The position numbers were made by a program, and so were the translations under genes. Shown in pieces: positions 124 to 25,300 of a stretch of DNA of 42,188 nucleotides. The notes beneath the pieces are model-generated. The model saw only the letters and a list, made by a program, of their open reading frames with translations, was not told the origin of the DNA and ran no database searches. Within the stretch, counting starts at the first letter, position 1, and each line of letters starts with the position of its first letter. The DNA comes from a virus. Lineage: Duplodnaviria > Caudoviricetes. The DNA is taken from positions 1 through 42,188 of the IMG/VR virus record IMGVR_UViG_3300012943_000016; one strand, given 5' to 3'.

Positions 124-434
124 ACGCTAAAGGATTTGAATCGCTGCCACCCGGCTACGAAGCCGGCGGCAAACTTGCCCTGTGCCACCATGTCGGCCGG
201 CGGCGCGAAGGCGGCGTCCCGCATCTGCTGCTGGCCCGCGTTGTACATGATCACGTCGAGTTTCCGCATCAGCGGTGAGGCGAGCATCGCCCGCAGTTCC
301 GCCTGGTCGCTCTTCGTCAATGGCTCCGGCGGCTGCCAGCGCGCGGGCATCCGCAACGCCGCGATGATGGGCACCATGTCCGCCGGGATCTGCGCCCGCT
401 CTTCGCGGCCGAAAAATTTGCGCAGCCACTTCAC
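45..434 (-). CDS. Small head-morphogenesis-region protein between portal and scaffold
   Basis: 129-aa ORF with start overlapping the portal stop (431-434). Position is typical of podoviruses. Confidence 0.7.
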   Translation of the reverse strand: MKWLRKFFGREERAQIPADMVPIIAALRMPARWQPPEPLTKSDQAELRAMLASPLMRKLDVIMYNAGQQQMRDAAFAPPADMVAQGKFAAGFVAGWQRFKSFSVITLTETGEAETSADTGARGLEQHIP

Positions 435-2338
435 GCCGCACCTCCGATGTCGATCACGTCACCACCGCCGCCTTGCGGCTGGCCCATGCCCGGTGCCTGC
501 ATCTGCGCCTGTTGCTGCTTCGCCTGATCCACTTGATCCGCGAGCCCGGAGAGTTCTTGGAAAAGCGGCGCGCTCTGCTGCATCGCCTGCTGAAACCCCT
601 GCGGGTTTTTCTTCTTCATCGCCTGCATGTGCTGCTGGCCATGCTGCGCGAGCAGTCGCATCTGTTCAGGTGAGAGCGGTTCGCGCAGTTGTGTCCGCCG
701 CTGGATGAAGCCGGTGAGACTCTGCACATGCGCCGCGTCGTCATCGCTCGGCCGCACTTCCGCCGGGAAGCCGAGCAGCATGATGCTGATTTCCTCCGCC
801 TGATCCTCCATCTGCATCGCCGCCTGCGTGCCCGCGTTCAGCAGCAGCCGCTTCACCAGCCGCGGGTCGTCCGATTCGAGCACCGATTTATCCAGCTCCC
901 GCTGGTCGATGTTCGGATTACCGGTAAACATCTGCTTCCGCGCGATCGCCCGCTGCATCACGAACTGCCGGTTGATGTTGTCCCCGCTCCCACTCGGCTC
1001 GATCAGGTATTTATTGTTGAGCGCCGCGCCTGGCAGAGTGCCCAGTTCCCCGTCGAAGAAAAACTCCAGCTGCTCCTTCATGTACTGGATGAAGAGGCCC
1101 CACGTGAGGCGGAATCCATAGCCCAGCTCGCGGCGAAACACCCGCGCACGCAGGTCCATCGTCTGGTTCGCCATCCCGCCCACCATGTTCATCTCTGTCG
1201 CCGTGCGTGGCTTTTGTCCGGGCGCGTTCTGCGCCGCTCCGAAGTCCGGCGCCGCGATCGATTGCTCCGCCGTCATCCGTGTCATCTGCATCTGCACGCC
1301 GATGTCCATGGGCATCGCGGGGAACTGTACCGCCGTGACCTCGTAGGGTACGACCTCGCCCGGCACCATGCGGATATTCTGCGTGCCCGGCGGCAATCCG
1401 CTCTTCGCCGAAAACATCGGCGTGCACGTTAGCGTCTGGAAATCCTTTTGAGTGTTCCAGTCCTTGCACAGCGCCGCCTCGAACGGTGCCAGTCGCTCCG
1501 CCACGCCGCGGCCGGCATAGTAGCCCTTGTCCTTGATCTCTGAATTCAGCTCGAAAAACGGCGGCACATTCTCCGCGAACACCCCCTGATTGTACGGCAG
1601 GCCGAAATCTTCCCGCAGCTTATCCTTCGGCCGCGTCGGACTGTAGGTTCTCACCCACCACTGGCCCGCCTCATTCCGGTAAAAAACTTCCCACACCACG
1701 ATTTCCTCATCCGTCTTGCCGCAGGTCAGCCCCTCGCGACTCAACTTCTCCTCTTCGCTCCGCAGCGACTCCTCGCCCTTGCCGCAGATCGTCGCCACGA
1801 AAGCCTTGTCCTGGTTGAGTTCCTTGCGCCGCTTGTACGCCGCCTTCGAAAAATGCTGCACGTGCACGATCCAGTCGGCCTCCGCCAGCTTCTCCGTGCC
1901 GGCCGGCACGATCACGTAGAGAGGATGGATCGCGTCATACGCGACACGCCGCTTCTCCACATCCCAATAGACTTTCACCACGCACTTCGCGTGCAGCAGC
2001 ATCGTGTCGATCGCCGAAAAAATCTCGTCTTCGAAATTCGTCTTCTGCTTCACCTGGTAGTCAAACCACGCCGCCGCCGCGCTCTGGAACTGCGCCTGCC
2101 CCGCTGAGAGCGCCGCAAACGTCGCCAGCACATCCGTCGCGAACACCTGCTGCACATAGACCGGTTTGAGCTTTTCAAGCTGCATATCCACGAGCGGGAA
2201 ATGCATATCCGACGCATTCGGAAACGGCTTCACCCGCCGGCGCAGGCCGTCGTGGCGCATCTGATACCAAGTCGCCTGCCGCTCCTCCCACGTTTTACGT
2301 GCCGTGAGTGCGCCGAGGATTTCAGAGTGTTTGACCAT
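431..2338 (-). CDS. Portal protein (P22-like podovirus type)
   Basis: 635 aa directly after TerL, with a 'KPRTATE' motif and a Q-rich C-terminal coiled tail typical of podovirus portals. Confidence 0.9.
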   Translation of the reverse strand: MVKHSEILGALTARKTWEERQATWYQMRHDGLRRRVKPFPNASDMHFPLVDMQLEKLKPVYVQQVFATDVLATFAALSAGQAQFQSAAAAWFDYQVKQKTNFEDEIFSAIDTMLLHAKCVVKVYWDVEKRRVAYDAIHPLYVIVPAGTEKLAEADWIVHVQHFSKAAYKRRKELNQDKAFVATICGKGEESLRSEEEKLSREGLTCGKTDEEIVVWEVFYRNEAGQWWVRTYSPTRPKDKLREDFGLPYNQGVFAENVPPFFELNSEIKDKGYYAGRGVAERLAPFEAALCKDWNTQKDFQTLTCTPMFSAKSGLPPGTQNIRMVPGEVVPYEVTAVQFPAMPMDIGVQMQMTRMTAEQSIAAPDFGAAQNAPGQKPRTATEMNMVGGMANQTMDLRARVFRRELGYGFRLTWGLFIQYMKEQLEFFFDGELGTLPGAALNNKYLIEPSGSGDNINRQFVMQRAIARKQMFTGNPNIDQRELDKSVLESDDPRLVKRLLLNAGTQAAMQMEDQAEEISIMLLGFPAEVRPSDDDAAHVQSLTGFIQRRTQLREPLSPEQMRLLAQHGQQHMQAMKKKNPQGFQQAMQQSAPLFQELSGLADQVDQAKQQQAQMQAPGMGQPQGGGGDVIDIGGAA

Positions 2339-2350
2339 GGTTCAAAAAGT

Positions 2351-3748
2351 TCAGTCGCAGTAAGCCCCCGCCACCTGCCCGCGCCCCTCTTGTCGGGCCG
2401 CCTGCTCGAGCAATCCCATCTCGGGATCGGTCCATTGCATCAGCTTCACCGCTTTGAAATCCGGGTAGTCATAAGCCACGCCCACGATCGCATCCGCCCG
2501 GTCAGGACTCTTCGTGTTCGTGCGGCTCTTCGGCATCAACTGCAGCTTCCCATCCGGCCGGCCAAACACCTTCACACCGTCCCGCTCCACGTGCACTTCC
2601 TCCTTGTTGAGCAGTTGCTTTTTCAGGATCTCGTCGGCCGGGATGATCAGTTCGCCGCGCTTCAATTTGTCGTTGAGCTGCCACCACTGCTCCGCCGCGA
2701 GGTTGAAATAATGCGGATCGCGCGCCGGAGCATTATTCCCGACCGCCTGTATCTCCACGCCCATCTGCCGGAGCGCGACCAAGTAGCCGTGCCCCACGCC
2801 ATCCTCGTCTCCAAAAAGTTTATACCCCTCTCGGGTCAGCTCCTGCGCGTGTTTGAAAAACCGCATCGTGTTCCGTTCGCTGCTCGGATCGTTCGCCCAC
2901 AAGTCGCGCAGCGCGCACCGGTTCCCGTCTCGCACCGCGATCACGTTTTCATCGCCGCCCCCCTTTGCGAAATCGCAAAACGCCTGTTTGGTCCCCGCGC
3001 GGAAAACCGGCGGCCGGAGCATAGCGTTCTCGTAGTTCACGAACCCGATCACCCGTCCGTCGTTGTTTCCATCGCCGAACTCGCCCGCGATCATCGAGCG
3101 ATAGACGTCCGAATCCTCGCCGTACTGGATCCGCATCGCCTCGATGAATTCCGGCGTGATGTGCGGGCAGTCCGCCGTCGTGATCGCGAAAGACGCGAAG
3201 CGCCCGCTCTTGAACGAGTCGTAGAAGCGTCCGAGCAATCCTCCGGGCGACGAAATATAAAGCAGGTGCGTCGGCTGACACCGGTCGATCGCGATGAAGA
3301 TTTCATCCGCCACCGTCTTCGCCTCGTCCACGATGATCATCAGCGGCCGGCCCGGATACGCGTGGAACCCCTCGAACCGCCCGCCCGCATCAGTAGCGAA
3401 ACCAACGATACGCCCGCCCTCCGGCGTCTCGATCGAGGTTTCATTCCACTTCCAGCCCGCGAATTTTCCGCTGTGCGTTTTGAGCGCCGCAAACATCTGG
3501 TCGCGCACCTGGCGAAACGTCGCACTCGTCAGCACGACCGTTGCACCGGGGAATTCGTGGAGCATGCACAGCGCCAGCACGACGATGCACACCGAGGTCT
3601 TACCCGCGCCGTTCGGCGTGCGCGCCGTCGTCGGCCGTCCGCTCCACACGCTCATCATCAGCCGCGCCTGCCAGCCATAGAGCGTCATCGCGAGCGCGGC
3701 TATGGCGAAGCTCACCGGATTCACCTTTTGCGACATGTCGACCGTCAT
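2351..3748 (-). CDS. terL: Terminase large subunit
   Basis: Walker A TPNGAGKT, Walker B LMIIVDEA, and RNase H-like nuclease motifs DFAKGGGDENV and SPDRADA. Confidence 0.95.
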   Translation of the reverse strand: MTVDMSQKVNPVSFAIAALAMTLYGWQARLMMSVWSGRPTTARTPNGAGKTSVCIVVLALCMLHEFPGATVVLTSATFRQVRDQMFAALKTHSGKFAGWKWNETSIETPEGGRIVGFATDAGGRFEGFHAYPGRPLMIIVDEAKTVADEIFIAIDRCQPTHLLYISSPGGLLGRFYDSFKSGRFASFAITTADCPHITPEFIEAMRIQYGEDSDVYRSMIAGEFGDGNNDGRVIGFVNYENAMLRPPVFRAGTKQAFCDFAKGGGDENVIAVRDGNRCALRDLWANDPSSERNTMRFFKHAQELTREGYKLFGDEDGVGHGYLVALRQMGVEIQAVGNNAPARDPHYFNLAAEQWWQLNDKLKRGELIIPADEILKKQLLNKEEVHVERDGVKVFGRPDGKLQLMPKSRTNTKSPDRADAIVGVAYDYPDFKAVKLMQWTDPEMGLLEQAARQEGRGQVAGAYCD

Positions 3749-4317
3749 CAGCCGGCCCTCCGCTCGCCGCCGTTAAACTCCTGCTGCAATTGGATGATCT
3801 GCGCCCGCTGCTCCGGCGTGATCGTGTGGTGGTGGTTCACATCGCCCTCGATCTTAAGCACCAACTTGCCGAGCAGTGTGCCCAGCAGCGTGTCCGTTTG
3901 GTTCGCGAGCGTCATGAGCTCTCGCTCGCGTTTCCAGTCGCGGAGCGGTTTGGCCCGCAACTCCTCGATCTCCGCCTGCAAATCCGCGCTGCGTTGCCAA
4001 ACCCGTTTGATCAGCTGATCCGCATTGCCCGCAACTCGCGCCACCGCCTTCGCGAGAAACGCCGCGACTCCCGGCACCTTCATGATCTTCGAAGCATGCG
4101 CCTCCGGGTCGGCATAGCCGGCGGTCTTTCCCGCCGCGACCGCCGATCCAGTTTTCAAATACGCGACGCAAAATTCCAGCTGCTTGCGCGAAAGGACGGC
4201 CGCGCCCTGAGGCAAATCGGCGAGGCCCACCGCCTCGAACATTTCCTTCGCGCCCGGCAGCGTCAGCTGCTCCGCCTTATCGGCGTCGGAGGGCGGAAAA
4301 AGGAGAGGCGCGCTCAT
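3748..4317 (-). CDS. terS: Terminase small subunit
   Basis: N-terminal HTH signature LSRKQLEFCVAYLKTGSAVAAGKTAGY, abutting terL. Start placed at ATG 4317 (uncertain). Confidence 0.85.
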   Translation of the reverse strand: MSAPLLFPPSDADKAEQLTLPGAKEMFEAVGLADLPQGAAVLSRKQLEFCVAYLKTGSAVAAGKTAGYADPEAHASKIMKVPGVAAFLAKAVARVAGNADQLIKRVWQRSADLQAEIEELRAKPLRDWKRERELMTLANQTDTLLGTLLGKLVLKIEGDVNHHHTITPEQRAQIIQLQQEFNGGERRAG

Positions 4318-4362
4318 GCGAAATATCCACACGCGCGCGCCTCCGCGAACCAATCCAGAAAC

Positions 4363-4393
4363 CGGGTTAGTTCGGTGAACTAACCCGAACTAA
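4363..4393. promoter_or_regulatory. Perfect 11-bp inverted repeat plus a third GAACTAA copy upstream of terS
   Basis: CGGGTTAGTTC-ggt-GAACTAACCCG (4363-4387), with GAACTAA again at 4387-4393, in the early/late intergenic gap. Confidence 0.55.
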
Positions 4394-4400
4394 GTGTCAT

Positions 4401-4721
4401 TTAGTGCAAATTCGCGGGCAGGTAGTTGGCCAGCACGCACGCCACCTTGCGCCCGGCGCGTGTCGGCGAAATCGTCAGTCCGAACGGTCCGCGCGCAGCC
4501 GTGAAGCTCACGCGCTCGCCGTCATCCAGGCACTCGATGGTCACGCGAAACCCGGAAGCCTTGGCCCGCGGCATCACGCAATGCGACGTATCCGGCAACA
4601 CGGGATCGGCGAACGCACGCGCGAGCCGCTTGCATTCCTTCGCCGCGCGCTGGTTCGCGCGTTTCCGCAAATGCCGCCGCAGGTTCTCGCTGCGATGTAG
4701 TGACTTCCGCCTTACCATCAT
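4401..4721 (-). CDS. Basic hypothetical protein, last gene of the early operon
   Basis: 106-aa ORF with ATGA overlap with the upstream cassette gene at 4718-4721. Confidence 0.7.
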   Translation of the reverse strand: MMVRRKSLHRSENLRRHLRKRANQRAAKECKRLARAFADPVLPDTSHCVMPRAKASGFRVTIECLDDGERVSFTAARGPFGLTISPTRAGRKVACVLANYLPANLH

Positions 4722-5014
4722 TTTTCGATGTTGGTTATCCTATGGTTCGGCAAAAGTCTTTTCAGGATGCCGATGGCGTATTTCCCGAGAGCTGCGCGGA
4801 AGAAAGAGCCCTCGCAGTCCACGATGTACTCCCGGCCTTTGCGGGTCCACGGCGTGCCGTCCATCGCGACTTTGAAGATGATGCCCACCCGACGGAAGAG
4901 CACGATGTAGTATGACCGGAACTCTGGCACCTCTTCGATGCGGCAGCGCCACAGGCCGAACAAAGCCTCACAGCGCAACGCCTCTACGGGGTCTGTTTTG
5001 TTATCAGTGTCCAT
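4718..5014 (-). CDS. Cassette 1 hypothetical protein
   Basis: MDTDNKTDPVEALRCEALFG...LPNHRITNIEK. ATG 5014 lies in the attC1 loop. Confidence 0.7.
   Translation of the reverse strand: MDTDNKTDPVEALRCEALFGLWRCRIEEVPEFRSYYIVLFRRVGIIFKVAMDGTPWTRKGREYIVDCEGSFFRAALGKYAIGILKRLLPNHRITNIEK
4729..4751 (+). other. Left array boundary: attC right-arm half-site or attI-like site
   Basis: GTTGGTTA-tcctatg-GTTCGGC mimics the L'-spacer-R' arm of the attCs but has no complete left arm; only a degenerate GCCTTAC at 4709-4715. Confidence 0.55.
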
Positions 5015-5046
5015 GGTTCGGCGTGGCTGAAGATTGGGCGTTCGCC
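4955..5046 (+). other. attC-like site 1
   Basis: GCCGAAC...tcacagcgcaacgcc / ggcgtggctga...GTTCGCC (92 bp). Confidence 0.85.
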
Positions 5047-5627
5047 CAATTCGCCGTGAAGTAATCGGCCACGGTGTCCGCGAGAGCGGGCGGGATCTCT
5101 GCGCGGAGTTCGGGGCGCATCCCCGACTTTGCCATTTTCCCGCGTGGCAGCACGGGCATGAGAAGCGGCACGTCACCCCACAGCGCGTAGCTTTCGCACC
5201 GCACCGAGCCGGCGACGTGGCGCGCCGCGAAATTCGAGCACTCGACCAGCCGGCGCGGCCGGTCGCAGAGCGCTACGGACCAGGTGAGCAGGTCGAGCGC
5301 CCATTGCGCCGGCTGTTTGTCGCCGCGCAGCCACGGCAGCCAGGCGCGCGCGTATTCTTCGCACGGCGGCGACATCACCACCGCGTCAAATCTATTGATC
5401 CATTCGCGGTCGAGCGTGAGCACGTCGGCTTGCACGAACTCATGCGGGTAGCCGAGTGCGGCGATGTCCACGCCGACGCAGCGCCAGCCACGCGCCGCGA
5501 ATGATTTCGACCACCCGCCGACGCCGCAGAAGAGGTCCAAAACGGAGGGCGAACCAGACGCCACAGCACAATGCCGGGCGCTGTCACGTCCGTCCGCGAT
5601 GTCGATGCTTGGAGCAGCGCCCGTCAT
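5004..5627 (-). CDS. Cassette 2: short DNA cytosine-C5 methyltransferase-like protein
   Basis: Motif I VLDLFCGVGG, VGVDI, catalytic SPPC and a C-terminal RAEIPP. Much shorter than canonical Dcm; start uncertain. Confidence 0.8.
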   Translation of the reverse strand: MTGAAPSIDIADGRDSARHCAVASGSPSVLDLFCGVGGWSKSFAARGWRCVGVDIAALGYPHEFVQADVLTLDREWINRFDAVVMSPPCEEYARAWLPWLRGDKQPAQWALDLLTWSVALCDRPRRLVECSNFAARHVAGSVRCESYALWGDVPLLMPVLPRGKMAKSGMRPELRAEIPPALADTVADYFTANWANAQSSATPNHGH

Positions 5628-5648
5628 GGCTGAGCTTTTCCGTTAGGG
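5548..5648 (+). other. attC-like site 2
   Basis: GGCGAAC...cacagcacaatgccgggcgctg / cagcgcccgtcatggctga...GTTAGGG (101 bp). Confidence 0.85.
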
Positions 5649-5954
5649 CAGGCGTGACCAGTAGGCTTGGAGTTGTGCGCGGCATTCGTAGTAGGAATGA
5701 GCGCGACCGCTCGCCGCCTCGCCAGAGAAGCCGTCGGCCATCTCGTCATTGGCGGTTTCCTCAGCGTATTCTTCGAGCCCTTTAAGGATCGAGGAGATCG
5801 TCACGATTTCGAGCGGGGTGCTCTCGTCGAAGTGTTTCTTCTCGGCGTCCACGTCTGCCGCCGTCGCGTAGTTCCCCAGAAGCCCTAACCATGCGTCCAC
5901 AGCCAACGCCGGGGGCTGTCCGGCTGGCGATTGAGTTTCGGTTTTCGTATCCAT
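5643..5954 (-). CDS. Cassette 3 hypothetical protein
   Basis: 103 aa. Starts in the attC3 loop and stops at the TAA inside the attC2 core. Confidence 0.75.
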   Translation of the reverse strand: MDTKTETQSPAGQPPALAVDAWLGLLGNYATAADVDAEKKHFDESTPLEIVTISSILKGLEEYAEETANDEMADGFSGEAASGRAHSYYECRAQLQAYWSRLP

Positions 5955-6014
5955 AAAGTGCTGTCTTGATGTTATTGGTTTTCGCCCGGCGTCGGCTGAT
6001 CCGCGGCGTTCGGC
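5883..6014 (+). other. attC-like site 3
   Basis: CCCTAAC...cagccaacgccggg / cccggcgtcggctga...GTTCGGC (132 bp). Confidence 0.88.
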
Positions 6015-6292
6015 GAAGGCAGGTAGCGCACGAAGTCGAAGTCATACCACGACCAATCTACACCGGTTGCCGGTTCGATCTTCGACAGCCGGAAGACGGC
6101 GGTTTTCCCGCTCATCATCGCGACGTTGATTTCAACGCCTACGCGATCCGGGCAGCCGTGGTTATACCAGAACGTGGCGCACCCATGGGTGCGGATTGGT
6201 CGGGGGATCGGTTCGGCTTGCGCACGGTTACGCCGAACCACCCGTAGAGCCAACGCGGACAGGCGTGCTTTGGTTTTCGCGAGGGTCTTCAC
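5972..6292 (-). CDS. Cassette 4 hypothetical protein
   Basis: 106 aa. GTG start in the attC4 loop, stop in the attC3 loop, tail SPNAADQPTPGENQ. Confidence 0.65.
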   Translation of the reverse strand: MKTLAKTKARLSALALRVVRRNRAQAEPIPRPIRTHGCATFWYNHGCPDRVGVEINVAMMSGKTAVFRLSKIEPATGVDWSWYDFDFVRYLPSPNAADQPTPGENQ

Positions 6293-6337
6293 GTGTTCGA
6301 GGGCTTAGAGCCGCGTGGCTCACTTGGGACGTTAGCC
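6232..6337 (+). other. attC-like site 4
   Basis: GCCGAAC...gagccaacgcgg / ccgcgtggctca...GTTAGCC (106 bp). Confidence 0.88.
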
Positions 6338-6571
6338 TTGGAGCTGGATTTGAACGTCCATGCTAAACGGCGGCTCGGCACCCATCACGAGATGCGGGCC
6401 GAATATCTGCATCAGTTCCCACATTTGGATGGTACACCATCCATCGGCATCTTCGTTGGGCGGTCCTGATTCGATTCCGATCCGCTCGCGGTCCTGCATG
6501 AAAATCTCGCGCCCTTTGGTATTAAGTTGCACGCGCACGTAGTTGTTCAGATTCCAGATTTGAAAGTTCAT
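6332..6571 (-). CDS. Cassette 5 phage-type hypothetical protein
   Basis: MNFQIWNLNNYVRVQLNTKG...QMWELMQIFG; stop TAA lies within the attC4 core. Confidence 0.75.
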   Translation of the reverse strand: MNFQIWNLNNYVRVQLNTKGREIFMQDRERIGIESGPPNEDADGWCTIQMWELMQIFGPHLVMGAEPPFSMDVQIQLQG

Positions 6572-6589
6572 ATTTTCGGTTAAAAGAAT

Positions 6590-6657
6590 GGCTAACCAGC
6601 GATTACACACAACCTCCGGAGCTTCGCTCCTTCGGTGTGTGACCCGCGATGTTAGCC
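6590..6657 (+). other. attC-like site 5
   Basis: GGCTAAC...acacacaacc / ggtgtgtga...GTTAGCC (68 bp), with an inner ggagc-ttc-gctcc hairpin. Confidence 0.9.
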
Positions 6658-6995
6658 GGACGCCGAAGCTCCGAAAGTAGGTAGTCGCCCACTTCAGGAA
6701 GCTGGTCGCTGTTGAGTTCGATGCTTTTGCGTGAGCGTGGCATCCAATCGAAGCGCATCGCGTTTCCGTTTGCGTCGAACCACTCTACCCATCCTCCGGG
6801 TAGCTGTTTCCACCACGCCTTCACACCCCATGCCCTCCATGAGAGATCGCCGTCCTCGCGGCGCGTGAGATACCAGCCTTTGCGGCGTGGGGTTGTTTCT
6901 TTGTCTTTCCAGAGGCTAACCATCGCACCACAGCCAACGCCCTTGTCCGGGGCTTCGGCGGTATCTGTATCCACTTTATTGTTACTTGAGGTCAT
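6603..6995 (-). CDS. Cassette 6 Trp-rich hypothetical protein
   Basis: 130 aa with P..KGWYLTR...W...W. Start in the attC6 loop, stop in attC5. Confidence 0.75.
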   Translation of the reverse strand: MTSSNNKVDTDTAEAPDKGVGCGAMVSLWKDKETTPRRKGWYLTRREDGDLSWRAWGVKAWWKQLPGGWVEWFDANGNAMRFDWMPRSRKSIELNSDQLPEVGDYLLSELRRPANIAGHTPKERSSGGCV

Positions 6996-7036
6996 AGAGT
7001 TGTTCTCAGGGCGTCGGCTGATTGCGGTCGTTCGGC
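6914..7036 (+). other. attC-like site 6
   Basis: GGCTAAC...cagccaacgccct / agggcgtcggctga...GTTCGGC (123 bp). Confidence 0.88.
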
Positions 7037-7324
7037 TTCATCCTCAGCGTCGAGATCAGGAAGCGACTCCAACGACACTGCGCATTCGTCGGCAAATCGG
7101 TTGATCGCGTATCCGTGGGAGCGACTGGCAAGCACATGCGACCCGTCAAAGTCGGTCTCTCCCGTGGCAGTGCAGCAGATCGGCTGGCCCGACTGCGTAT
7201 GCGTCCAGACGGTCGCGCCGTTTTCGAAAGAAACCGCCGAACCAGAGCTGCCAGACCCAACGCCCTTGCTTTTCAGTTCTTCGACAGCAGCCGTCCGACG
7301 CTCCACATCAGTTGTATTTTCCAT
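6992..7324 (-). CDS. Cassette 7 hypothetical protein
   Basis: MENTTDVERR... starts in the attC7 loop; its TGA overlaps the next ATG (6992-6995). Confidence 0.7.
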   Translation of the reverse strand: MENTTDVERRTAAVEELKSKGVGSGSSGSAVSFENGATVWTHTQSGQPICCTATGETDFDGSHVLASRSHGYAINRFADECAVSLESLPDLDAEDEAERPQSADALRTTL

Positions 7325-7371
7325 AGTATTACAGCCCGCGCGGCGGGCGTTGGTCATCAGCGTTGTTCGCT
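7236..7371 (+). other. attC-like site 7
   Basis: GCCGAAC...gacccaacgccc / gggcgttggtca...GTTCGCT (136 bp). Confidence 0.85.
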
Positions 7372-7676
7372 AAGGAAAAAGCCGCGCGCACGCACTCGGG
7401 ACATAGTTGCGCCGTCCGGCTTTCGTAGTCCGGCGGCTCGCCGACCTGAATCAGAGCATCCACCTCTTTTTTGCACTCATCGCATGTCATGCGTGTCCAG
7501 CTTCGATTCCCGATGATGCGTTCGATGTCATCCTCGGTCGCGGTTTCCACGTTGATACGATCTAGTTCTTTGGCGATTTTGCCTTTCGAGTCGTCCCACT
7601 TTTGGAACGGCGTATATGTCTGCCGCCAGTGCGCGGGCACTCTGCGGATGATTTCTCTTTTGGTCGTGAGGTTCAT
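7329..7676 (-). CDS. Cassette 8 zinc-finger-like protein
   Basis: CDEC...CPEC motifs; stop in the attC7 loop. Confidence 0.75.
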   Translation of the reverse strand: MNLTTKREIIRRVPAHWRQTYTPFQKWDDSKGKIAKELDRINVETATEDDIERIIGNRSWTRMTCDECKKEVDALIQVGEPPDYESRTAQLCPECVRAAFSLANNADDQRPPRGL

Positions 7677-7683
7677 GATCGGA

Positions 7684-7803
7684 AGCGAACCATCCACTAG
7701 AGCCAACGGCCCTAGCTTCAGGCGGATTGTTGATTAGGGCGTGCGGTCGATTTTCTGGCTAGGTATCCCGCTCTCGGGGCCGTTGCTCACTGGGGCGTTC
7801 GAC
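7684..7803 (+). other. attC-like site 8
   Basis: AGCGAAC...gagccaacggccc / gggccgttgctca...GTTCGAC (120 bp). Confidence 0.88.
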
Positions 7804-8144
7804 CTACTCGGCGCGGTGACTCCGAGCGCGACGAGCGCAGCGTATGCTTTGCCGCGATACTTTCCGCGCTGGAATCGGTGCAGGGCGATCCACGGAGTAT
7901 CTTGCCCTTCGTGGCGGTTGTGCTCCGCGTGGATTGCGCGAGCCACCTTGTCTTGCATTTTCTCAAATGCTTTAGGCGAGCACTGGCCGTCCCCGAATAC
8001 TTCGCACGCGCGGCACGGCGTTGCCTGCTTCCTGAGTTCGGCATGGAGTTCGGACGCAAGCACGCTGCATTTTGTCAGCGCCTTGGATGCGCCTGCTGCC
8101 TCGATGGCATGGCAGAGCGCGAGAGCTTTCTTAGATGTTGTCAT
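7734..8144 (-). CDS. Cassette 9 hypothetical protein
   Basis: 136 aa; tail RSNAPVSNGPESG is encoded by the attC8 right arm. Confidence 0.75.
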   Translation of the reverse strand: MTTSKKALALCHAIEAAGASKALTKCSVLASELHAELRKQATPCRACEVFGDGQCSPKAFEKMQDKVARAIHAEHNRHEGQDTPWIALHRFQRGKYRGKAYAALVALGVTAPSRSNAPVSNGPESGIPSQKIDRTP

Positions 8145-8167
8145 GTTTTCGTGAGGTTAAAAGAGAG

Positions 8168-8225
8168 GTCGAACCAAGCCATCACAGCCAACGCCTAGCG
8201 GCGTGGCTGACTGGCGATGTTCGAC
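8168..8225 (+). other. attC-like site 9 (classic ~59-base element)
   Basis: GTCGAAC-caagccatcacagccaacgcc-tagc-ggcgtggctgactggcgat-GTTCGAC (58 bp). Confidence 0.92.
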
Positions 8226-8413
8226 GCGGCGGCCTTCGCCAGTTCTGCGATCTCCCGTGCGAGCGATCGCCTTTGCTTCTTCGTCTCGCACAGGTCGATT
8301 GCCTCGAGCCAGTAGTGCTCAGATAGCCGAGCGCGGGCGAAGAGCTGTGCGAGCGCCGCTTTCGAACCAGCGACCACACCCAACGCGGATGACGTGTCGT
8401 TTTGATTACTCAT
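8195..8413 (-). CDS. Cassette 10 hypothetical protein
   Basis: MSNQNDTSSALGVVAGSK...ASNIASQPRR. Start in the attC10 loop, TAG at the attC9 apex. Confidence 0.7.
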   Translation of the reverse strand: MSNQNDTSSALGVVAGSKAALAQLFARARLSEHYWLEAIDLCETKKQRRSLAREIAELAKAAASNIASQPRR

Positions 8414-8449
8414 GGCTGTTTTCGCGTGGGTGATTCGCGGTCGTTGGCC
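8361..8449 (+). other. attC-like site 10
   Basis: TTCGAAC...cacccaacgcg / cgcgtgggtga...GTTGGCC (89 bp). Confidence 0.85.
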
Positions 8450-8745
8450 GAACAAGATTTCCGCCGTGAAGTCCGCTCCTTCCAAATCCTCACAGCCTCA
8501 GTCCAAAAGATACTCTGCCATACTCCATCTACTCGGCTGTGCATCCGATCTAGTTCCTTTATCAAGCGAAGGCGCAAGCGTCGCAGATCAGCGGCTGGCA
8601 ATACGGCTTCTTCGCCTGCAAGCTCACGTTTTATCGCTGCAAGAGAAAGCCGAGACCTCCGAACGGAAAACGAAAAGGGCTTAGTGAAATTTCGTGCTGC
8701 GCACGCTTCGATTATAGCGGGGACTTCAGTTGTTTTGGTTTTCAT
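8410..8745 (-). CDS. Cassette 11 hypothetical protein (visibly lower GC)
   Basis: 111 aa; TGA overlaps the next ATG (8410-8413) inside attC10. Confidence 0.65.
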   Translation of the reverse strand: MKTKTTEVPAIIEACAARNFTKPFSFSVRRSRLSLAAIKRELAGEEAVLPAADLRRLRLRLIKELDRMHSRVDGVWQSIFWTEAVRIWKERTSRRKSCSANDRESPTRKQP

Positions 8746-8755
8746 AAGAAAAGAG

Positions 8756-8859
8756 GGCTAACCAGTTCGATAGTGGGAACACATTTTAAGCGGCCAACGG
8801 GCGCGAGGGGCAGCAACGGGCGGGCTCAGGAGCTGTGTCCCACATCTCCATTGCTCGGC
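8756..8859 (+). other. attC-like site 11 with altered core (GCT instead of GTT)
   Basis: GGCTAAC...gtgggaacaca / tgtgtcccaca-8 nt-GCTCGGC (104 bp). Confidence 0.7.
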
Positions 8860-9059
8860 AAGTGGAGGTGGGTGAGGCCGTGGCGCTCGATGTATGCTGC
8901 GTGTATGTAGCCCTGATCCCATGCGGCTGCTTTGGCTGCGTCGCTTGGGTAGGGATTTGGTGTGCGAAAACTGCCGCGCCTCTGGGTCATATAGCCCGCT
9001 TGATATGCGTCTCGGTAGATATCCCCGGAAGCCGAGCCCGCCGCCTTTAGTGTATCCAT
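8826..9059 (-). CDS. Rmf/CrpP-fold-like small protein
   Basis: AYQAGY...PNPY...AWDQGY resembles the ribosome modulation factor pattern GYQAG...CPY...W.GGW. Confidence 0.55.
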   Translation of the reverse strand: MDTLKAAGSASGDIYRDAYQAGYMTQRRGSFRTPNPYPSDAAKAAAWDQGYIHAAYIERHGLTHLHLPSNGDVGHSS

Positions 9060-9091
9060 ATTTTTAGACCCCGGAAAATTAATTGCTCCAC

Positions 9092-9391
9092 TCACAGCAT
9101 TTTCTCGATCGCGCGTTCCGTTTTCTTCATCCCCTCGGCGATGTCCGAGATGGTCCAGCCGGCCTTCTTGCGTAGTATCGCCGCCACTACGCGGCGCTTC
9201 CTCGCGGTGTCCCGCTCCTTGCTCCGGCCCTGCAGTGTCCGCACGCCGATTCCCGCCTGGCGGCATGCCTCCGCCAGTTCCGGATCCACTTCCGCTGCCG
9301 GCACCAGGCCGCGCAGACCATTCGCCGCCTCCAGCTCGTTCATGCGTTTTCGCATCCGCGCAAACTCCATCTTCATCTCGTCGGTACTCAC
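9092..9391 (-). CDS. DnaA C-terminal-like helix-turn-helix protein
   Basis: LQGRSKERDTARKRRVVAAILRKKAGWTISDIAEGM matches the DnaA domain IV pattern; directly after the initiator. Confidence 0.7.
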   Translation of the reverse strand: MSTDEMKMEFARMRKRMNELEAANGLRGLVPAAEVDPELAEACRQAGIGVRTLQGRSKERDTARKRRVVAAILRKKAGWTISDIAEGMKKTERAIEKML

Positions 9392-10299
9392 CGTGCACCG
9401 CCCTTCGCCATCTGCTCCCGGATGAATTTGCGATCAATCGCCGCGTGCGCTTTCCACGCGAGCGGCCCCGGCTCCTGTCCCGCTGCGTATTTCCAAGCAG
9501 GGAAATTTTCATCCATCCACGCCTGCCAGCCCTCCGGCTCGTCCCTCCCCGTGGCTCGCTCCTGCCGCTCCTCCGTACGCACCGGAGCTTTCGGCAGCCA
9601 AGCCTCCGCGAAAAACCGCAGTTCCAGCTCCGCCTTCTCGCCGCGTTCCTTGCGCACGTACGCCAGCGCCTCACGCCGCTGCTGCGCGAGGTCCACGAGA
9701 GGGAACCGCCGTTGCAGCTCCTCAAAATCCGACTCATCCAAAATTTTATTGTGTCGTGTCGTCGTCGTCGCCTCCGGCAACGCACCGAACGCCGGAGCCC
9801 CCGGCGCCGGAGAACTAGAACCACGACCACTACTCTCTTCTTCTCTTCTCTTCTCTTCTCTGGTCCCGATTTCCGGCGGTTTCTGTCCGCCATCTGTCCG
9901 GCTTTTGTCCGGACACATGGCGGACAAACGTCCGGCCCTTGTCTGCTCCGCCTCCGCGATTCGTGAGGCCCGTTTCCGCTCCATTTCCAACGCCCGCACT
10001 TTCGCAGACTCGCCATTATGCCGGTCAAATTTCGGAAACCTCACGCCCTCCGCTGTGCACTCGATCCAGCCCACATCCTCCATCGCCGCAGTGAATCCAC
10101 GCCGGCCCAGCTTCTCGTCGATCACCTTGGCCGTCACATGCGGCAGGAACCCGTCCGCCGCGTGCTCATCCGCCCAGCTCCACAGCGTTTGCAGCCGCCC
10201 CACGACACCGTAGCGGTCGAGTTTTGTCCGCGCGGCGATGCCTATCACCGCAGGATCGTCGGCGAGGTTCATCCGCATTTTAATCCAGTCGTTGGCCAT
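9388..10299 (-). CDS. Phage replication initiator / replisome organizer
   Basis: MANDWIKMRMNLADDPAV...VVGRLQTLWSWADEH N-terminus typical of phage initiators, with a low-complexity linker carrying iterons. Confidence 0.8.
   Translation of the reverse strand: MANDWIKMRMNLADDPAVIGIAARTKLDRYGVVGRLQTLWSWADEHAADGFLPHVTAKVIDEKLGRRGFTAAMEDVGWIECTAEGVRFPKFDRHNGESAKVRALEMERKRASRIAEAEQTRAGRLSAMCPDKSRTDGGQKPPEIGTREEKRREEESSGRGSSSPAPGAPAFGALPEATTTTRHNKILDESDFEELQRRFPLVDLAQQRREALAYVRKERGEKAELELRFFAEAWLPKAPVRTEERQERATGRDEPEGWQAWMDENFPAWKYAAGQEPGPLAWKAHAAIDRKFIREQMAKGGAR
9833..9935. repeat. Putative replication origin (iterons inside the initiator gene)
   Basis: Clustered TGTCCG/CGGACA repeats (9884-9935) next to a (TCTCT/TCT)n pyrimidine tract, like lambdoid origins inside O-type genes. 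Confidence 0.6.
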
Positions 10300-19376: not shown

Positions 19377-22300
19377 TCACCTCCGCGCCGGCCTCAAACT
19401 ATCCCTTTCAGCCCGTTCCGCGCGCTCACGCATCTCCTCTTCGGAGCGCTTTTCCCAAGCGTCGAAAAGTCCCTGCACGTGCTGATAGCGCGGCCGGGCT
19501 TGGAAGTTCTTCAGCGCCGCCGCTCCGCCGCGTTCGCTCGGGAAGATCGTCCGTTCGCGTCCGCGCATGCCGTTCATGCGGTCGTAGTAGATGAATGCCC
19601 GCTTGAGTTGCTCGCGGTCAAACGGGCTCAGCTCCTCCACGAACTCCTTCCTGAGTCCGTCCTTCTTTTTGAGCGTCGCGAGCGGATCCTGCGCGCGCAC
19701 GCTCGCCGCGAATCGTTCCGCCGTGTAGCCGTAGTCCAGCGCGCGCTGATAAAACCGCATCGCCGCCGGCACATCGCCCTGATAGATCGCCTTGCGGAAA
19801 TTCCTCAGCACCTGCTGATCCGGCGCATCGTAACTCGTGTCCCGTTTCGAGCCCGTTTTTTCCTCCATAAAGTCCGCCGCCTTGTCGCGAATTTCATAAT
19901 ACGACCATGCCTCCGGGTCGCGCTGGCGCACCTGCAGGATGAGCTGCTTTGACCAGTCGCCAAAATCCTTCGGCGCGTAGTAGTCTTTATTAACCGCGCG
20001 TTCGATCAGATCGGCGGTGAAATCGTCCGTCACCATGCTCAGGATCGAGCGGCGCATATCGTATTCGGGGATCGTGCGCGGGTCCGTCACATCGGGAAAC
20101 ATCCGCTTCTTCGTCGCCAGTGCCGCCGGCACTTGGGCGAGCGGTCCCGCCTGCCCGACGACGTTGTTGATCAAGTCAGGCGCGAGCTGCTTCCGCCACG
20201 AATCAAACGCCGTGGCAAAGTCCGTCTGCCCCTTCATCCATGCGACCGTTCCGCGCATCGCTTCCGGCCCGCTGAACCACTTGAGCACGTCCATGAAGGC
20301 CGTCGGCGCGTACGCGACCTGCACCTTGCCGTCATCGTCGCGTCCGAGGATGATGTGGAACCGCCGCTTGTCCGCTTCGCTCAGTTCGTCTTCCAGTTTG
20401 TCGCGATCTCCCGAATTATTCCAAAGCGCGACGGCGATATATGGCAGCGAAAGCCGCAGCGCGAAGCCCGCCGCCGCCCGCGCCGTAAACGTCGTCGCCG
20501 CTTTCGCACCTTTCGCCACTGCCGCGCCCTTCGTCGTCTCGCCCTGCTTCACCATGTCGCGCAGATTGCGGAATAAGTTGGCGTGGTATTTGAAATTCAC
20601 CTCCAGCCACGAGTAAAACGGGATGAATTTTTCGCGCAGCGTCTGCCCCGTCACCGATGTGTCCGAGTAGTCGCCAAACGTCGCCTTGCTGATCGCTCCC
20701 GCCTTGCGCACGTCCGCATCGTTCGCGCCTTTTGCGCTCTCCGTCATCGCGTCGATTTCCTTCCAGTATGCGCCCGCATACACCGGCCGCGCGCCGTTCC
20801 TCAGCCGTGAGAGGTCCGCTTTGAATTTCGAGTAGCGTGTGATCGCTTCGCGGAGCGCACTGGCCTCCACGCTGGAAAGGTCACCCAAGCCCAGCGGCGC
20901 GAGGATCGGCTGCAACAGCACACTGGAAGCGCGTTTGCGCACCTGCCGCCAGGCCGCTTCCGCCTTCGTCTGGAATTCCTTGAAGTTCGGCAATCCCGCG
21001 ATCGCGTGCATCTCCTGCGCGGTGATCGCGTTCAGCACGCCTTCCTTGAGCGCCGCCCGCAGGTCGTCGCCGGCGTTCCCGCCGCGCCAGAATTCGCGCA
21101 GCTCCTTCGCCGCCGGTGCGAGATATTTGAATACCTCTGGATCGGCCGAAAAAATCTTTTCGAGGTCGGCCGTGATATTGCCGAATTCGTAGCGGATATG
21201 GTTTTGCGGCATGAACAGTTTCCACCGTTTCCACGCCCCGATCGCGAATTTCATCGCCGCATCCCACGCCTTGTCCGAGTGCGTTTCGCGCTGCGCGATT
21301 CCCCTCAGCGCCTCGGCCACGCGCGCAGGCACGATCCACGTTTCGCGCGCTCCCATTTCCATCGCTTCCTTCAAGTCCTCGGGCAGCAACCGCACACCCT
21401 TCAAGCCCAGCTGCTCAAACTGCGATTGCAGGTCCGCGCTCGTCAGTGCCACCCCCAGCCGCCGCGCGAGCTTGTCGCGGTCGATGCTGACCGTGGGGAA
21501 CGCGTCGCGGCTGTCCGTCCCATAGAGCACGTATCCTTTCGGCGCATACTCTTCATGAAATGCCTGCTCCCAGCTCACCGGCGCGCCGCGTTCGCGCGCG
21601 AGTTTTTTCGCGCGCGCCTCGACTTCCTTTTTCACGTCATAGTGCCGGAAATAATCCTGCACGATGTCCGCCTTTTCATTGTGCGCGCCCACCTGCACGA
21701 GATGGTAGTACATCGCGCGCACGTAGTCCGTTTCGATGGCCTTGCTGCTGCCCACCGGGTCGATCAGGTAGCCCCGGAAATCCGCTTCGGTACCCGGCCG
21801 CACACGCTCCGGTGCCAGTTCGCGCTGCTCCGTTTTTCCGCCACGTGTCGTTTCCAGCGTGATATGCGGGAAATAGTAGGGATTTTCCAGATGGTCCGCC
21901 GCCATCAGGTCACGTTTTTTCAAGTCCTCGCTCACGCGTTTCACCAGCGCCATATGCTGCTCGAGTGCGTGCGCGATCAGGTCGCGGTGAGCGCTTGTTT
22001 CCATCGCCACGGAGAGCCGCTTCAGTTCCGCCGCGATCTCCGCCTGGTTGATGTCTGACGGCAGCCGGATCGGATTCCCTTCGGAGTCCTTCAAATTCTG
22101 CTGGCGCCAGTTGAGATCGAGCATGACGACCAACTGCTGGAAAAGCACATATGGGCTGCTTTCGACCTGCGCGCTCAGCGATTCGATGGTTGCCAGTTGC
22201 GATTTCGAGAGGTCTCGCCCGTCAGCCTTCGCGCGCCGCCGCTGCTCCTGCAGGTTCGTCAGCCGCTTGTATGCCGCCGCGTCAAATTCCCCCGCGCGGA

Positions 22301-25300
22301 TCAACGGCTTTGTGATACGTGCCACATCCTCCTCGGACCGTTTTTGCACGTAGTCGTTGATGTTTTTGAGCTGCCGATAGCCCTCCTTCACGCGGTTGTA
22401 GAACGCCGCGCCATGCTGGCGGATGAACCCATCGGCTGCGTTCCACTTCGCTGCCGCGAACGTCGGCAGTTCCGGCACCGCACCGCGAAATCCCGCGAGC
22501 ACGTTCCGCACCTTGTCCCAAGTTTTGAATACAGCGGACGGCGTTGCGCTGCTGTGCCCATACACCTCGGCCGCCTTGCCCGGCCGCACCGGCAGCGGCT
22601 CGTCTTTCGGCAGAAACGGGGAGTCCTCATTGTCATCTGGCTGCGCCGCTTCGGCTGTTTCCGGTGGCTGCTCAGGCGGCGCAGGAGGCTTTCCCGGCCG
22701 GGACTCGTTTTCCACAACGTCGCTTGTTTGTTTATTCGCTTCCCAGCCGGGAAATTCCTTGTCGAGCGTCGCCCGCGTTTGCGCGGCCCGCTTCTCCTGC
22801 CACTGCGCGTCGATGTCGCCCTGCAGCGAATCCTTCGCGCGCATCTTCTCCGCTTGCTCGGTGGCGTGCGCGAGCAGTTCCATCAGCGCCACCTTGCGAT
22901 TCACCGGCGGGAGCGCTTCCACTTTCGGCGCCTTCGCGATCACTTCGGCCGCGTCGAGCTCCTCCGGTTTTGGCAGCCACTCCGGGTCCTCCACACGCTG
23001 CTCTGCCGTTTTCTCTGTCGGTGCTGGTTTCTCCAGCGCGCTGGCCGGCTTCACCTTCGCCGCCACCTCCTCGTCGCTCATGGGTGCGGTGGCGCGCGGC
23101 TCGTTTTTCAGCGCGGCGATTTTTTCCGTCAACGCCCTGCCGCGCGCCTCGATCTCGACGGCGTCCTCCTGTGAATTCCCCTCGCGGAGCGCCTTCAATT
23201 CCGCCTCCGCCGCCCCGATTTCCGCGTCGACGTCGCGGAGCGGCAGAGCATCGCCGTCCGGAGCCATTGTCTTTTTCTTTCGAGCAAACTCCACACTCGC
23301 GGCTCCGCCGCCGCGCGAGGGGTTAGGGTTTCTCCAAGGATCGTTTAAAGTAGGACGGCGCCATGTGGCCAACACCTTGGGCCCACGAATAAGCACCTCT
23401 CCCGATAGTTCACCAGAGTGCTTCTCACCTTGATCGCCGCCGATAAGTGCAAGAGTGAAACCGGCTGACGAATATTTCGCATAACGCTCCATGTCGCGCC
23501 AATCCCTAAAAGCTGACGTTCCATCGAGTTCTTCAGAGGTTGGATTCGATTCACCATCTACATCTTCCCAAACAAACGAGTTGGGAAGTACGTCGCCGAC
23601 ATTCACCTCCCCATCAATTAACCTCCAGCCGACCGCCTCATAGTCTTCCGACTCTAGGAATTTCCGCTTCACCGCTTCTGAAGGACCGCTCTGCGGGGAG
23701 CCACTGGACTGTTGAGCGGCCCCGTCACCGGATGCCATGCCGGGTTTCTGGCCACCGTCTTTCCCGCCGTCAATATTTCGCGCGAACTCCACCTGCCGCG
23801 CATACGCGGTGCTCGCCTCGCTCGCCACCCTGGCGTCCGCGCCGCCCAACCAAAACCGGCGGAAGGCGTTTTCAAAAAGCTCGCTGTCCGTGTCGAATCC
23901 TCGCGAGCGCGCGAGTGATTCCCACACCTTGCGCACGAGTTCGCGGAGTTCATACGCCAGGCGGCGGATGAGTGAGTGCCCCGCCTTCTCCGCATCCGCG
24001 ATCCGGCCGTTTGCCCACGCCTCATTCAGCCGCGCGATTCGTTCCGCAAACCATTCCTTCACGCCCCACTCCGATTTGTCGTCGATGCCGTCGAGTTCGC
24101 TGCGCACGTTGCCCGCGTCGTCGTACAGTGGTCCCGTTTTGCCGAGCAGCTCGCGCTGGCGCAGTTCGCGGAGCAGCGCCTTCGTGTCATTGCTGAGACT
24201 GTCCCAATACACGTGCGCCACCTCGTGCGAGGTCAGCGCCGCCACCTTCTCGCGCGATTCGAAGGCCTCGGCAGCGAGCGCGATCAGTCCGCGCCGACCC
24301 TCGCTCCGCGTCACCGCCGCGCGCACGTTCTCCGGTACCGGCCCCAGCCGCTTGCCGTCCTGCGCCGCATATTTCTTCAAGAGATCCTCCACCAATCCCG
24401 CCTCGATGTCGTATTCACTCATCAACTCCGGGCTGCTCCGGCGCAACGCCGCGAGCGTGCGCTCCTGCGCCGCTTTATCGATCGCCTTGCTCGGCGCGCG
24501 TGTAGACTGCGCGAAATCACTCGCGGCTCCACCGCCGCGCGAGGGATTAGGGTTGACGCGGTCGGACGGCTGTGCTTCCTCAGGGTTCGACGGACGGATG
24601 GCAACATCCCTCAGCTCTGCTGATTTGGAGTCCGTCGCCTGTCTTGATTCCGCAATGCCGCCGGTAGCAGCGCTCTCACCGGCGGCATTGTCATTTTCAA
24701 GTTTCCGTAAGGCCAGTTTGTTCGCTTCGATACGCGCGCGCGCTCTCTCTTTCGAAGTAGCTCTTACACCTGGATCAACAAGGAGCTTTTCGTCGCTCGC
24801 GATTGTCGCGATAAGCTTATGCCTGTCTCGTGCGAGAATCTGCTCGCGCGTTGGCGGCGTGGATGGAGGCGCGGTCACCGGCTTCGGTTTAGGATTTGGG
24901 TTCTGGTCCCACCAAATATCGGAAACGCGCTGCTCAAAGGCGTCGATCAATTCTGGCTCCAGCGCTTTCCAGTCTTTTTTCAGATCCCTCCATCCCGACC
25001 GGCGAATATCGATATCGTAAATCCTTGGGGCGTTTGATGAAACCTGATCGTGGTTAGATATGCGGATGCGATCCAAAAACGACGCACCATTGTCTAACGT
25101 CACTCGCACCACAGGATAGTATGATTTGGACACGCGAGACCAATCATCAATGCCGCCGCCCGGTACTACTGAAACAATCAACGGTGGTTCGGTCTCGCCG
25201 CGATAAACACGACTTCTCGGGTCATCGACGCCCTGAAATCTGCGCGTTTCTTCAGGCAGGCTTAAGGCATCCACTTTATCAGGAACGCTCTGCGGGGGGG

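Follow-up and report, generated by a model that had tools for sequence, protein, structure and literature searches.

An eleven-cassette phage array of integron type with reversed genes, likely shuffled by a host integrase and likely read within the early operon

Phage integrons and clusters of attC sites lacking integron integrases (CALINs) were described by Qi et al. 2023, with two to four attC sites in the CALIN table, as far as the available part of that paper goes (PMC9892861). The window analyzed here, which is the complete 42,188-base virus record IMGVR_UViG_3300012943_000016 with direct terminal repeats, holds an array of 11 integron-type cassettes. The array shares with those CALINs an attC cluster, the lack of intI, and an orphan DNA methyltransferase cassette, and it differs from what the available part of the paper reports by its 11 sites, an attI-like site, and recent exchange. 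By definition (at least two attC sites close together, no intI nearby), it is a CALIN. It is neither canonical nor a complete integron: no intI lies next to the attI-like site, and the cassette genes are encoded on the attC sites' bottom strand, each unit running from one G|TT crossover to the next with attC at the 5' end of its gene. The array is real, mobile, and reversed in its genes. We hold with good, though not full, confidence that its reversed cassettes are likely shuffled by a host IntI and likely read within the early operon of the phage.

The attC type, the geometry of intI, attI, and array, and the crossover signature are shared with the sedentary chromosomal integrons of Verrucomicrobiota (Opitutaceae and relatives). 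In these, however, genes are canonical in 80 of 89 called cassettes and start after the upstream right box in 68 of 77, and intI lies 614-857 bp from attI (three bacterial contigs), compared with 35-119 bp at eight distinct viral loci, where intI is co-directional with the cassette genes and the attI right box matches the next left box 7/7 (distances counted from the first aligned residue). An engineered attC embedded in a coding sequence and open in frame, a design attributed to Nivina et al. 2020, reportedly still recombines; that case is synthetic, whereas the present one is natural and array-wide. From class 1 integrons, ORF-11 coupling at attI1 and small open reading frames (ORFs) in attC are known (PMC8876359, PMC11511950). 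According to the accessible parts of these sources, att-crossing translation is tied to expression of the next cassette and stops overlap attC, as here, but the top strand, short helper ORFs, and the Pc promoter are involved there, whereas in the window the strand concerned is the bottom one, with the ends of the genes themselves inside the site. Recombination of the top strand inverts a cassette, so that its gene faces attI as in the window (accessible part of Nivina et al. 2016, PMC5027507); in that case the gene is inverted along with its attC and falls silent, whereas here attC polarity is normal and the gene alone is reversed. The cassettes of TJE1 are canonical. In phage H101 (L233 888-1555, NC_029094), the attC bottom strands tested by Qi et al. 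2023 are on the coding strand, and reversed polarity was therefore already present, unremarked, in a published phage CALIN, although H101 genes, in contrast to those of the window, neither start nor stop in attCs. The available part of the text of Qi et al. 2023 does not mention reversed genes (PMC9892861), and no description of reversed cassettes in phages was found in the literature searched, which comprised few subscription papers and included the available parts of PMC9892861, 10.1101/2022.02.06.479319, 10.1101/2024.07.02.601719, and 10.1101/2022.09.11.507474. The sequence-only reading of the window that preceded this analysis had not recognized the architecture as a described one.

A mobile array with reversed genes

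The 11 attC-type sites span 4955-8859 with their top strand on +, and the first crossover is at 4745 (cf. Table 1). An attC model trained on other loci only recovered 8 of the 11 sites at default thresholds, with 0 in five shuffled windows, and 10 at relaxed thresholds; this model was adopted because a generic hairpin scanner, which was abandoned, caught just 2 of the 11. attC11 was found by eye and is backed by a breakpoint at 8853 in another sequencing run (X2), where, in a close relative, a different attC arm precedes the same junction. Circular forms of 10 sites fold with paired boxes, site 11 being the exception in its lowest-energy structure. The left box of each attC complements the right box of the preceding site (75 of 77 nucleotides [nt]). 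At the variable box positions, four per site, 42 of 44 match the previous right box versus 25 of 44 when the right box of the same site is taken, and the value of 42 was reached in 0 of 200,000 permutations. Insertion of cassettes as circles at G|TT leaves pairing of this kind across neighbors. The attI-like site has the right geometry, a degenerate L box, and a position conserved in five other phages, two of which have the L box known from attI sites of phages.

Nine of the 11 cassettes recur elsewhere beside other neighbors, some of them identical, with breakpoints at the G|TT crossover. Eight sequencing runs were compared, all as contigs, and those presumed to be RNA are probably DNA. With X1 possibly being the source sample and X3, X6, and X7 possibly a single data set, about four further studies are left. 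For cassettes 3, 5, 6, 7, 8, 9, 10, and 11, near-identical pieces end at or a few bases from crossovers, and their loose ends, where visible (not in all), are other attC arms or other cassette starts. Cassette 3 is common to the window and phage L033 from its left crossover through its right-hand attC, with homology ending at both crossovers and different neighbors on both sides, and cassette 9 is likewise present entire in X13, with 4 differences and other neighbors at both crossovers. Identical pieces were found for cassette 5 (6349-6653 in X11, right neighbor different), cassette 6 (6650-7015 in X3 and X6), cassette 7 (7029-7246 in X3 and X6, behind another attC arm), and cassette 10 (X2, X3, and X12, plus a 6-difference piece in X11; other neighbors at the crossovers), while a piece of cassette 8 (7618-7799) occurs in X11 with 2 differences. 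Cassette 2 is also present in locus L227. In X1, the first bases of cassette 11 also follow a bacterial-type attI and another attC, and the 30-base end before the cassette start matches the attI motif of 11 of 241 loci, all bacterial; with only 30 bases of overlap, this is no more than a hint of exchange between cassette 11 and a host integron. The cassette 11 variant that follows both this attI and the other attC in X1 has a shorter start region.

Box complementarity cannot fix the polarity of the cassettes because the pairing pattern is symmetric. Polarity was fixed by the joint travel of gene and right-hand attC, as in cassettes 3 and 9, and by the geometry of relatives, since in related phages intI is on the minus strand adjoining attI, with the attCs oriented as in the window. 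The window attCs also have the same model orientation as those of canonical bacterial arrays, and in bacterial arrays scored this way round the genes are canonical. Each cassette body is filled to 94-100% by minus-strand ORFs, which are favored in 10 of the 11 bodies by a codon model whose training excluded the array, cassette 11 failing and cassettes 7 and 9 scoring near zero. Seven cassettes (2, 3, 5, 6, 8, 9, and 11) have independent support for a minus-strand gene. The reversal of the cassette genes, already proposed from the sequence alone, is confirmed by the codon test and by the joint travel of gene and attC; the sequence-only reading had not included the attI-like site, the mobility evidence, or the IntI-bearing relatives.

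The survey of phage attC arrays which that reading had proposed gave 47 antisense, 0 canonical, and 33 uncalled cassettes among 80 viral ones, compared with 9 antisense, 80 canonical, and 49 uncalled among 138 from genome contigs; 7 of these 9 antisense cassettes belong to the single contig L164, whose small genes form a phage-like row. Counted per contig, 22 of 25 viral contigs were mostly antisense and none mostly canonical, versus 1 and 19, respectively, of 25 genomic contigs. The L164 stretch (242-5417, from an Opitutaceae genome bin) has 14 attC sites with reversed genes and is probably a prophage.

Stops, starts, and frame at the cassette junctions

All 11 stops and 7 starts listed by the sequence-only reading fall inside attCs. 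The stops at 5643 and 6332, however, are the TAA of the right box and thus belong to the gene's own cassette rather than the neighbor's, and the gene ending at 8826, taken for a cassette gene, is a backbone gene. The two proposed ATGA overlaps exist (6992/6995 and 8410/8413), with a third at 4718/4721 beside the attI-like site, and the peptides ALAVDAWLG, VGCGAMVS, and SPNAADQPTPG are encoded as claimed. Reading frames do run through the sites, though not over all of their bases: 93% of the array and 79% of the attC bases (888/1129) lie in ORFs. The junction gaps are -11, 15, 17, 39, 31, -4, 4, 57, 50, -4, and 80 nt, plus -4 at attI.

Genes leave their own cassette in one of two ways: two stop at the right-box TAA, and eight of the nine others enter the neighbor's attC in a fixed frame, with AAC as a codon. 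The AAC entry frame is also used by 29 of 31 read-through genes in other phages (of the 45 antisense cassettes considered, another 9 have their stop in the box and 5 ahead of it), and among bacterial genes that extend into their own attC, 17 of 21 do so in this frame. On the bottom strand, a stop in the entry frame lies inside 109 of 115 viral attCs (other frames, 54 and 75; top strand, 42), and bacterial attCs mirror this bias, with a stop in 137 of 156 on the top strand and 105 of 156 on the bottom. Where the attC loop is long, it contains an A-rich start as well as a leader, and an in-frame ATG is found in the bottom-strand loop of 67 of 96 viral versus 33 of 103 bacterial long sites. At the seven loop-start sites of the window, the entry-frame stop lies -11, -4, +17, -4, +10, +4, and -4 nt from the start, whereas each other frame places a stop that near in only one of the seven; the close stop is kept even where the present neighbor stops earlier (attC2 and attC4). 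When the 11 cassettes were joined in silico in 110 ordered pairs, 106 pairs stopped at or in the neighbor's attC, and the four failing pairs all involve cassette 7. Among the surveyed loop-start sites, the stop-to-start gap is -8 to +4 nt in 19 of 29, versus 6 and 14 of 29 in the other frames (p = 0.011 against both control frames pooled). Folding of the coding-strand RNA left the start codons accessible to varying degrees (0.0 to 0.69 unpaired) and does not count as support here. The idea that each attC is a portable stop/start module therefore survives in part: the geometry is built into the mobile unit at all seven loop-start sites, but at four sites the start lies outside attC, and the wider junctions do not fit the word "each."

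The attC-coded peptides themselves look like passengers or tolerated add-ons, because non-cassette homologues lack the leader and an unrelated gene has the same tail. Two homologues of gene 6 (62-63% identity) begin at the left-box position with the leader absent, while a third (82%) keeps the attC leader and diverges right after the C-terminal crossover; an unrelated gene in L033 receives the same C-terminal tail from attC3. One attC-coded leader shows 3 amino-acid changes versus 1 silent change.

Taken together, these features would let almost any cassette order end cleanly, by the fixed frame and the stop in the neighbor's loop, and at the seven suitable sites ribosomes crossing the stem may help to unfold the hairpin and begin translation again at the start codon in the loop. 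Transcription would run from the replication genes towards attI as part of the early operon, and a cassette added at attI would therefore join the far end of the array. Recombination would be performed by IntI supplied in trans by a Verrucomicrobiota host, and such a host enzyme could likely reshuffle cassettes without breaking the phage gene row. This host group is indicated by the attC motif, because the arrays found with it are mostly in Verrucomicrobiota and Opitutaceae contigs (137 of about 700 matching stretches were examined).

Integrase and competing readings

No integron integrase was found in the complete genome (no TIGR02249 match). Related phages encode IntI (282 bits, cut-off 265), which sits downstream of the reversed genes, and 1 of 5 related records tested carries it. 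In the window, the place occupied by intI in related phages is held by the platform gene g0. It has 102 homologues and lies beside the same site in L034, L089, L045, L240, and L241, so that with the window six phages have its start about 24 nt from the attI crossover; no Atlas match and no Protein Data Bank (PDB) fold match were found for it (predicted local distance difference test [pLDDT] of the model 83, predicted template modeling score [pTM] 0.39). In Virus Rctr41k (L231 2317-5678, KX853513), an IntI-like gene overlaps the last of several co-directional small genes, and no attC was found there with the trained model.

Several points weigh against the reading that we favor: (i) IntI is missing from the complete genome and from 4 of the 5 related records tested, including two with a completeness of at least 95%; (ii) the L box of the attI-like site departs from the phage consensus, and site 11 carries G|CT; (iii) the minus frame of cassette 11 scores poorly in the codon test; (iv) no call was reached for 33 of the 80 viral cassettes, 6 of 66 lean canonical when judged just by sign, and the orientation survey was seeded with one motif, hence one attC type, whose related sites are not independent; (v) some of the mosaics have their breakpoints within genes or at the left box; and (vi) at five of the 11 junctions a gap of 31-80 nt remains, gaps are also close in 14 of 29 sites with one control frame, and other operon junctions of the phage are equally tight. 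Because backbone junctions are as tight and one control frame is so often close, tight spacing is not special to attC.

An alternative is that the phage operons are simply compacted. On this account, which we judge rather unlikely, the cassettes are real, mobile, and reversed, and stops and starts lie in attC since the loop is the only free space, with no selected coupling. The wide gaps, the tight ordinary junctions, the starts outside the short attCs, and the leaders absent from non-cassette homologues all fit it, and most canonical cassettes also stop at attC, according to the available part of PMC11511950. Compaction is countered by stop and start lying close together specifically in the entry frame at all seven sites, even at attC2 and attC4, where the present neighbor makes no use of it, and by a stop bias that changes strand from phage to bacterial sites. 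A second account, to which we give little credence, takes the sites as being of integron origin and now serving as short repeats for homologous recombination by the phage, with no IntI. It would explain the genome without IntI and the exchanges that break inside genes or at the left box, but most breakpoints are within a few bases of G|TT, the pairing of left and right boxes follows cassette ends, the sites differ widely in sequence and length, and relatives keep IntI beside attI. The remaining account, a captured piece of a host integron whose real genes are on + or decayed, with the minus ORFs as shadows, draws on long + strand frames in several cassettes, on an attC type that is the host group's, and on the occurrence of cassette 11 behind a bacterial-type attI, but it is largely refuted and highly improbable, as the methyltransferase and other family matches are on the minus strand, the four longest + frames tested gave no Pfam match, the third-position bias is in the minus frame, and minus-strand homologues exist as ordinary genes. 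A mobile array of reversed cassettes, served by a host IntI and read with the early operon, thus remains our preferred reading.

Cassette genes, genome setting, and significance

Among the cassette genes, that of cassette 2 differs from its L227 copy at 109 positions, 78 of them third codon positions, with the ATG kept; homologues without a detected attC occur in L229 and L230. L085 (4176-5078) carries a fusion between a truncated intI and the N-terminus of the methyltransferase cassette gene. Sites related to that of cassette 4 in L014 and L067 have ATG at the position of the GTG start. The gene of cassette 8 has 44% homologues with no attC detected nearby, and no relative of its protein was found in viral contigs. 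Gene 9 is a mosaic, its ends matching one cassette family and residues 44-123 another (L078, L053), the second family being a cassette of its own in L053. For the gene of cassette 11, a homologue exists (P0004); a canonical + strand gene considered for this cassette was set aside, as the homologue and the variant start support the minus frame, and cassette 11 is the least certain of the cassettes. No protein homologue was found for cassettes 1, 4, 7, and 10 in family scans and the loci collected here.

Table 1 Coordinates of the array and of selected genes in the window
Feature	Position	Strand	Gene	Remarks
Terminase genes	2351-4353			flank the array region
Platform gene g0	4401..4721	-		106 amino acids (aa), basic, no known family; start about 24 nt from attI crossover
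attI-like site	4733..4751	+		crossover G|TT at 4745/4746; right box complements attC1 left box 7/7
Cassette 1	4746..5040	+	4718-5014 (-)	start in attC1, stop just beyond attI; ATGA overlap with g0
attC1	4955..5046	+		holds stop 5004, start 5014
Cassette 2	5041..5642	+	5004-5627 (-)	DNA methyltransferase-like, PHROG 363, E 1.1e-14
attC2	5548..5648	+		holds start 5627, right-box stop 5643
Cassette 3	5643..6008	+	5643-5954 (-)	86% protein identity with phage L033
attC3	5883..6014	+		holds stop 5972, start 5954
Cassette 4	6009..6331	+	5972-6292 (-)	GTG start
attC4	6232..6337	+		holds start 6292, right-box stop 6332
Cassette 5	6332..6651	+	6332-6571 (-)	start outside attC; PHROG 5792, E 1.8e-6
attC5	6590..6657	+		holds stop 6603
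Cassette 6	6652..7030	+	6603-6995 (-)	
attC6	6914..7036	+		ATGA overlap 6992/6995
Cassette 7	7031..7365	+	6992-7324 (-)	sole gene entering neighbor off the usual frame
attC7	7236..7371	+		holds stop 7329, start 7324
Cassette 8	7366..7797	+	7329-7676 (-)	start outside attC
attC8	7684..7803	+		holds stop 7734
Cassette 9	7798..8219	+	7734-8144 (-)	start outside attC
attC9	8168..8225	+		holds stop 8195
Cassette 10	8220..8443	+	8195-8413 (-)	
attC10	8361..8449	+		ATGA overlap 8410/8413
Cassette 11	8444..8853	+	8410-8745 (-)	start outside attC, atypical codon use
attC11	8756..8859	+		right box G|CT, not G|TT; holds stop 8826
Backbone gene	8826-9059	-		reads into attC11; first gene upstream of array in transcription
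Replication initiation gene	9388-10299			flanks the array region
Phage integrase	18007-19128			matches generic tyrosine recombinase models only
2904-aa ORF	19377-28091	-		just a weak match to virion RNA polymerase family (E 4.5e-4)

Nearly all genes of the window are on the minus strand, and the array region is flanked by the replication initiation gene and the terminase genes (cf. Table 1). The window phage is a soil phage and is probably temperate, because it carries an ordinary phage integrase. Among sequencing data sets its best match is a soil metagenome, and none of the matching sets listed is RNA. The backbone gene reading into attC11 resembles the Rmf/CrpP fold below cut-off (Pfam RMF E 1.4e-5; NCBIfam NF041887 E 9.8e-4). 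An Rfam scan of 4000-10000 gave a single match at chance level, and a promoter and terminator scan of the array region gave nothing above chance. As for a Pc promoter facing the array, no sigma-70 match was found upstream on +, with 1 in the region versus 1.3 expected. The absence of Shine-Dalgarno motifs at cassette starts says little because the motif is rare across this phage (4 of 19 backbone starts).

The attC-plus-leader module of attC3, and likewise that of attC6, is shared by gene bodies that are unrelated, the homology stopping at the left box: a site about 91% identical to attC3 sits on a different gene body in L028 (1265-1396), and a variant of attC6 sits on another body with the breakpoint at 6914 (run X12 among the cases). 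Non-cassette versions are known for three cassette genes. Because the module occurs on unrelated bodies with the break exactly at the left box, because such non-cassette versions exist, and because cassette 11 occurs behind a bacterial-type attI, we tentatively consider phages as possible cassette factories, in which an attC-plus-start module would be grafted at the left box onto the 5' end of a phage gene, giving a frame-locked, self-coupling cassette in a phage-only pool that is traded via IntI and sometimes enters host integrons. On this idea the recombining strand would be the mRNA-like strand, which would not fit a complementary DNA origin of cassettes. If true, it would make a route of cassette birth visible.

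In integron models, the choice of attC strand points genes away from attI for expression from Pc. Here, a whole phage group uses the same sites with reversed genes, and identical cassettes are found with different neighbors across studies. If IntI is responsible, these phages would tap a gene-shuffling enzyme of the host for their accessory genes, including an anti-restriction-type methyltransferase. Two questions become testable, namely how cassettes are first made and whether translation through attC overcomes its polar effect. Natural attCs that are translated could also serve as scarless, order-independent parts for synthetic operons.

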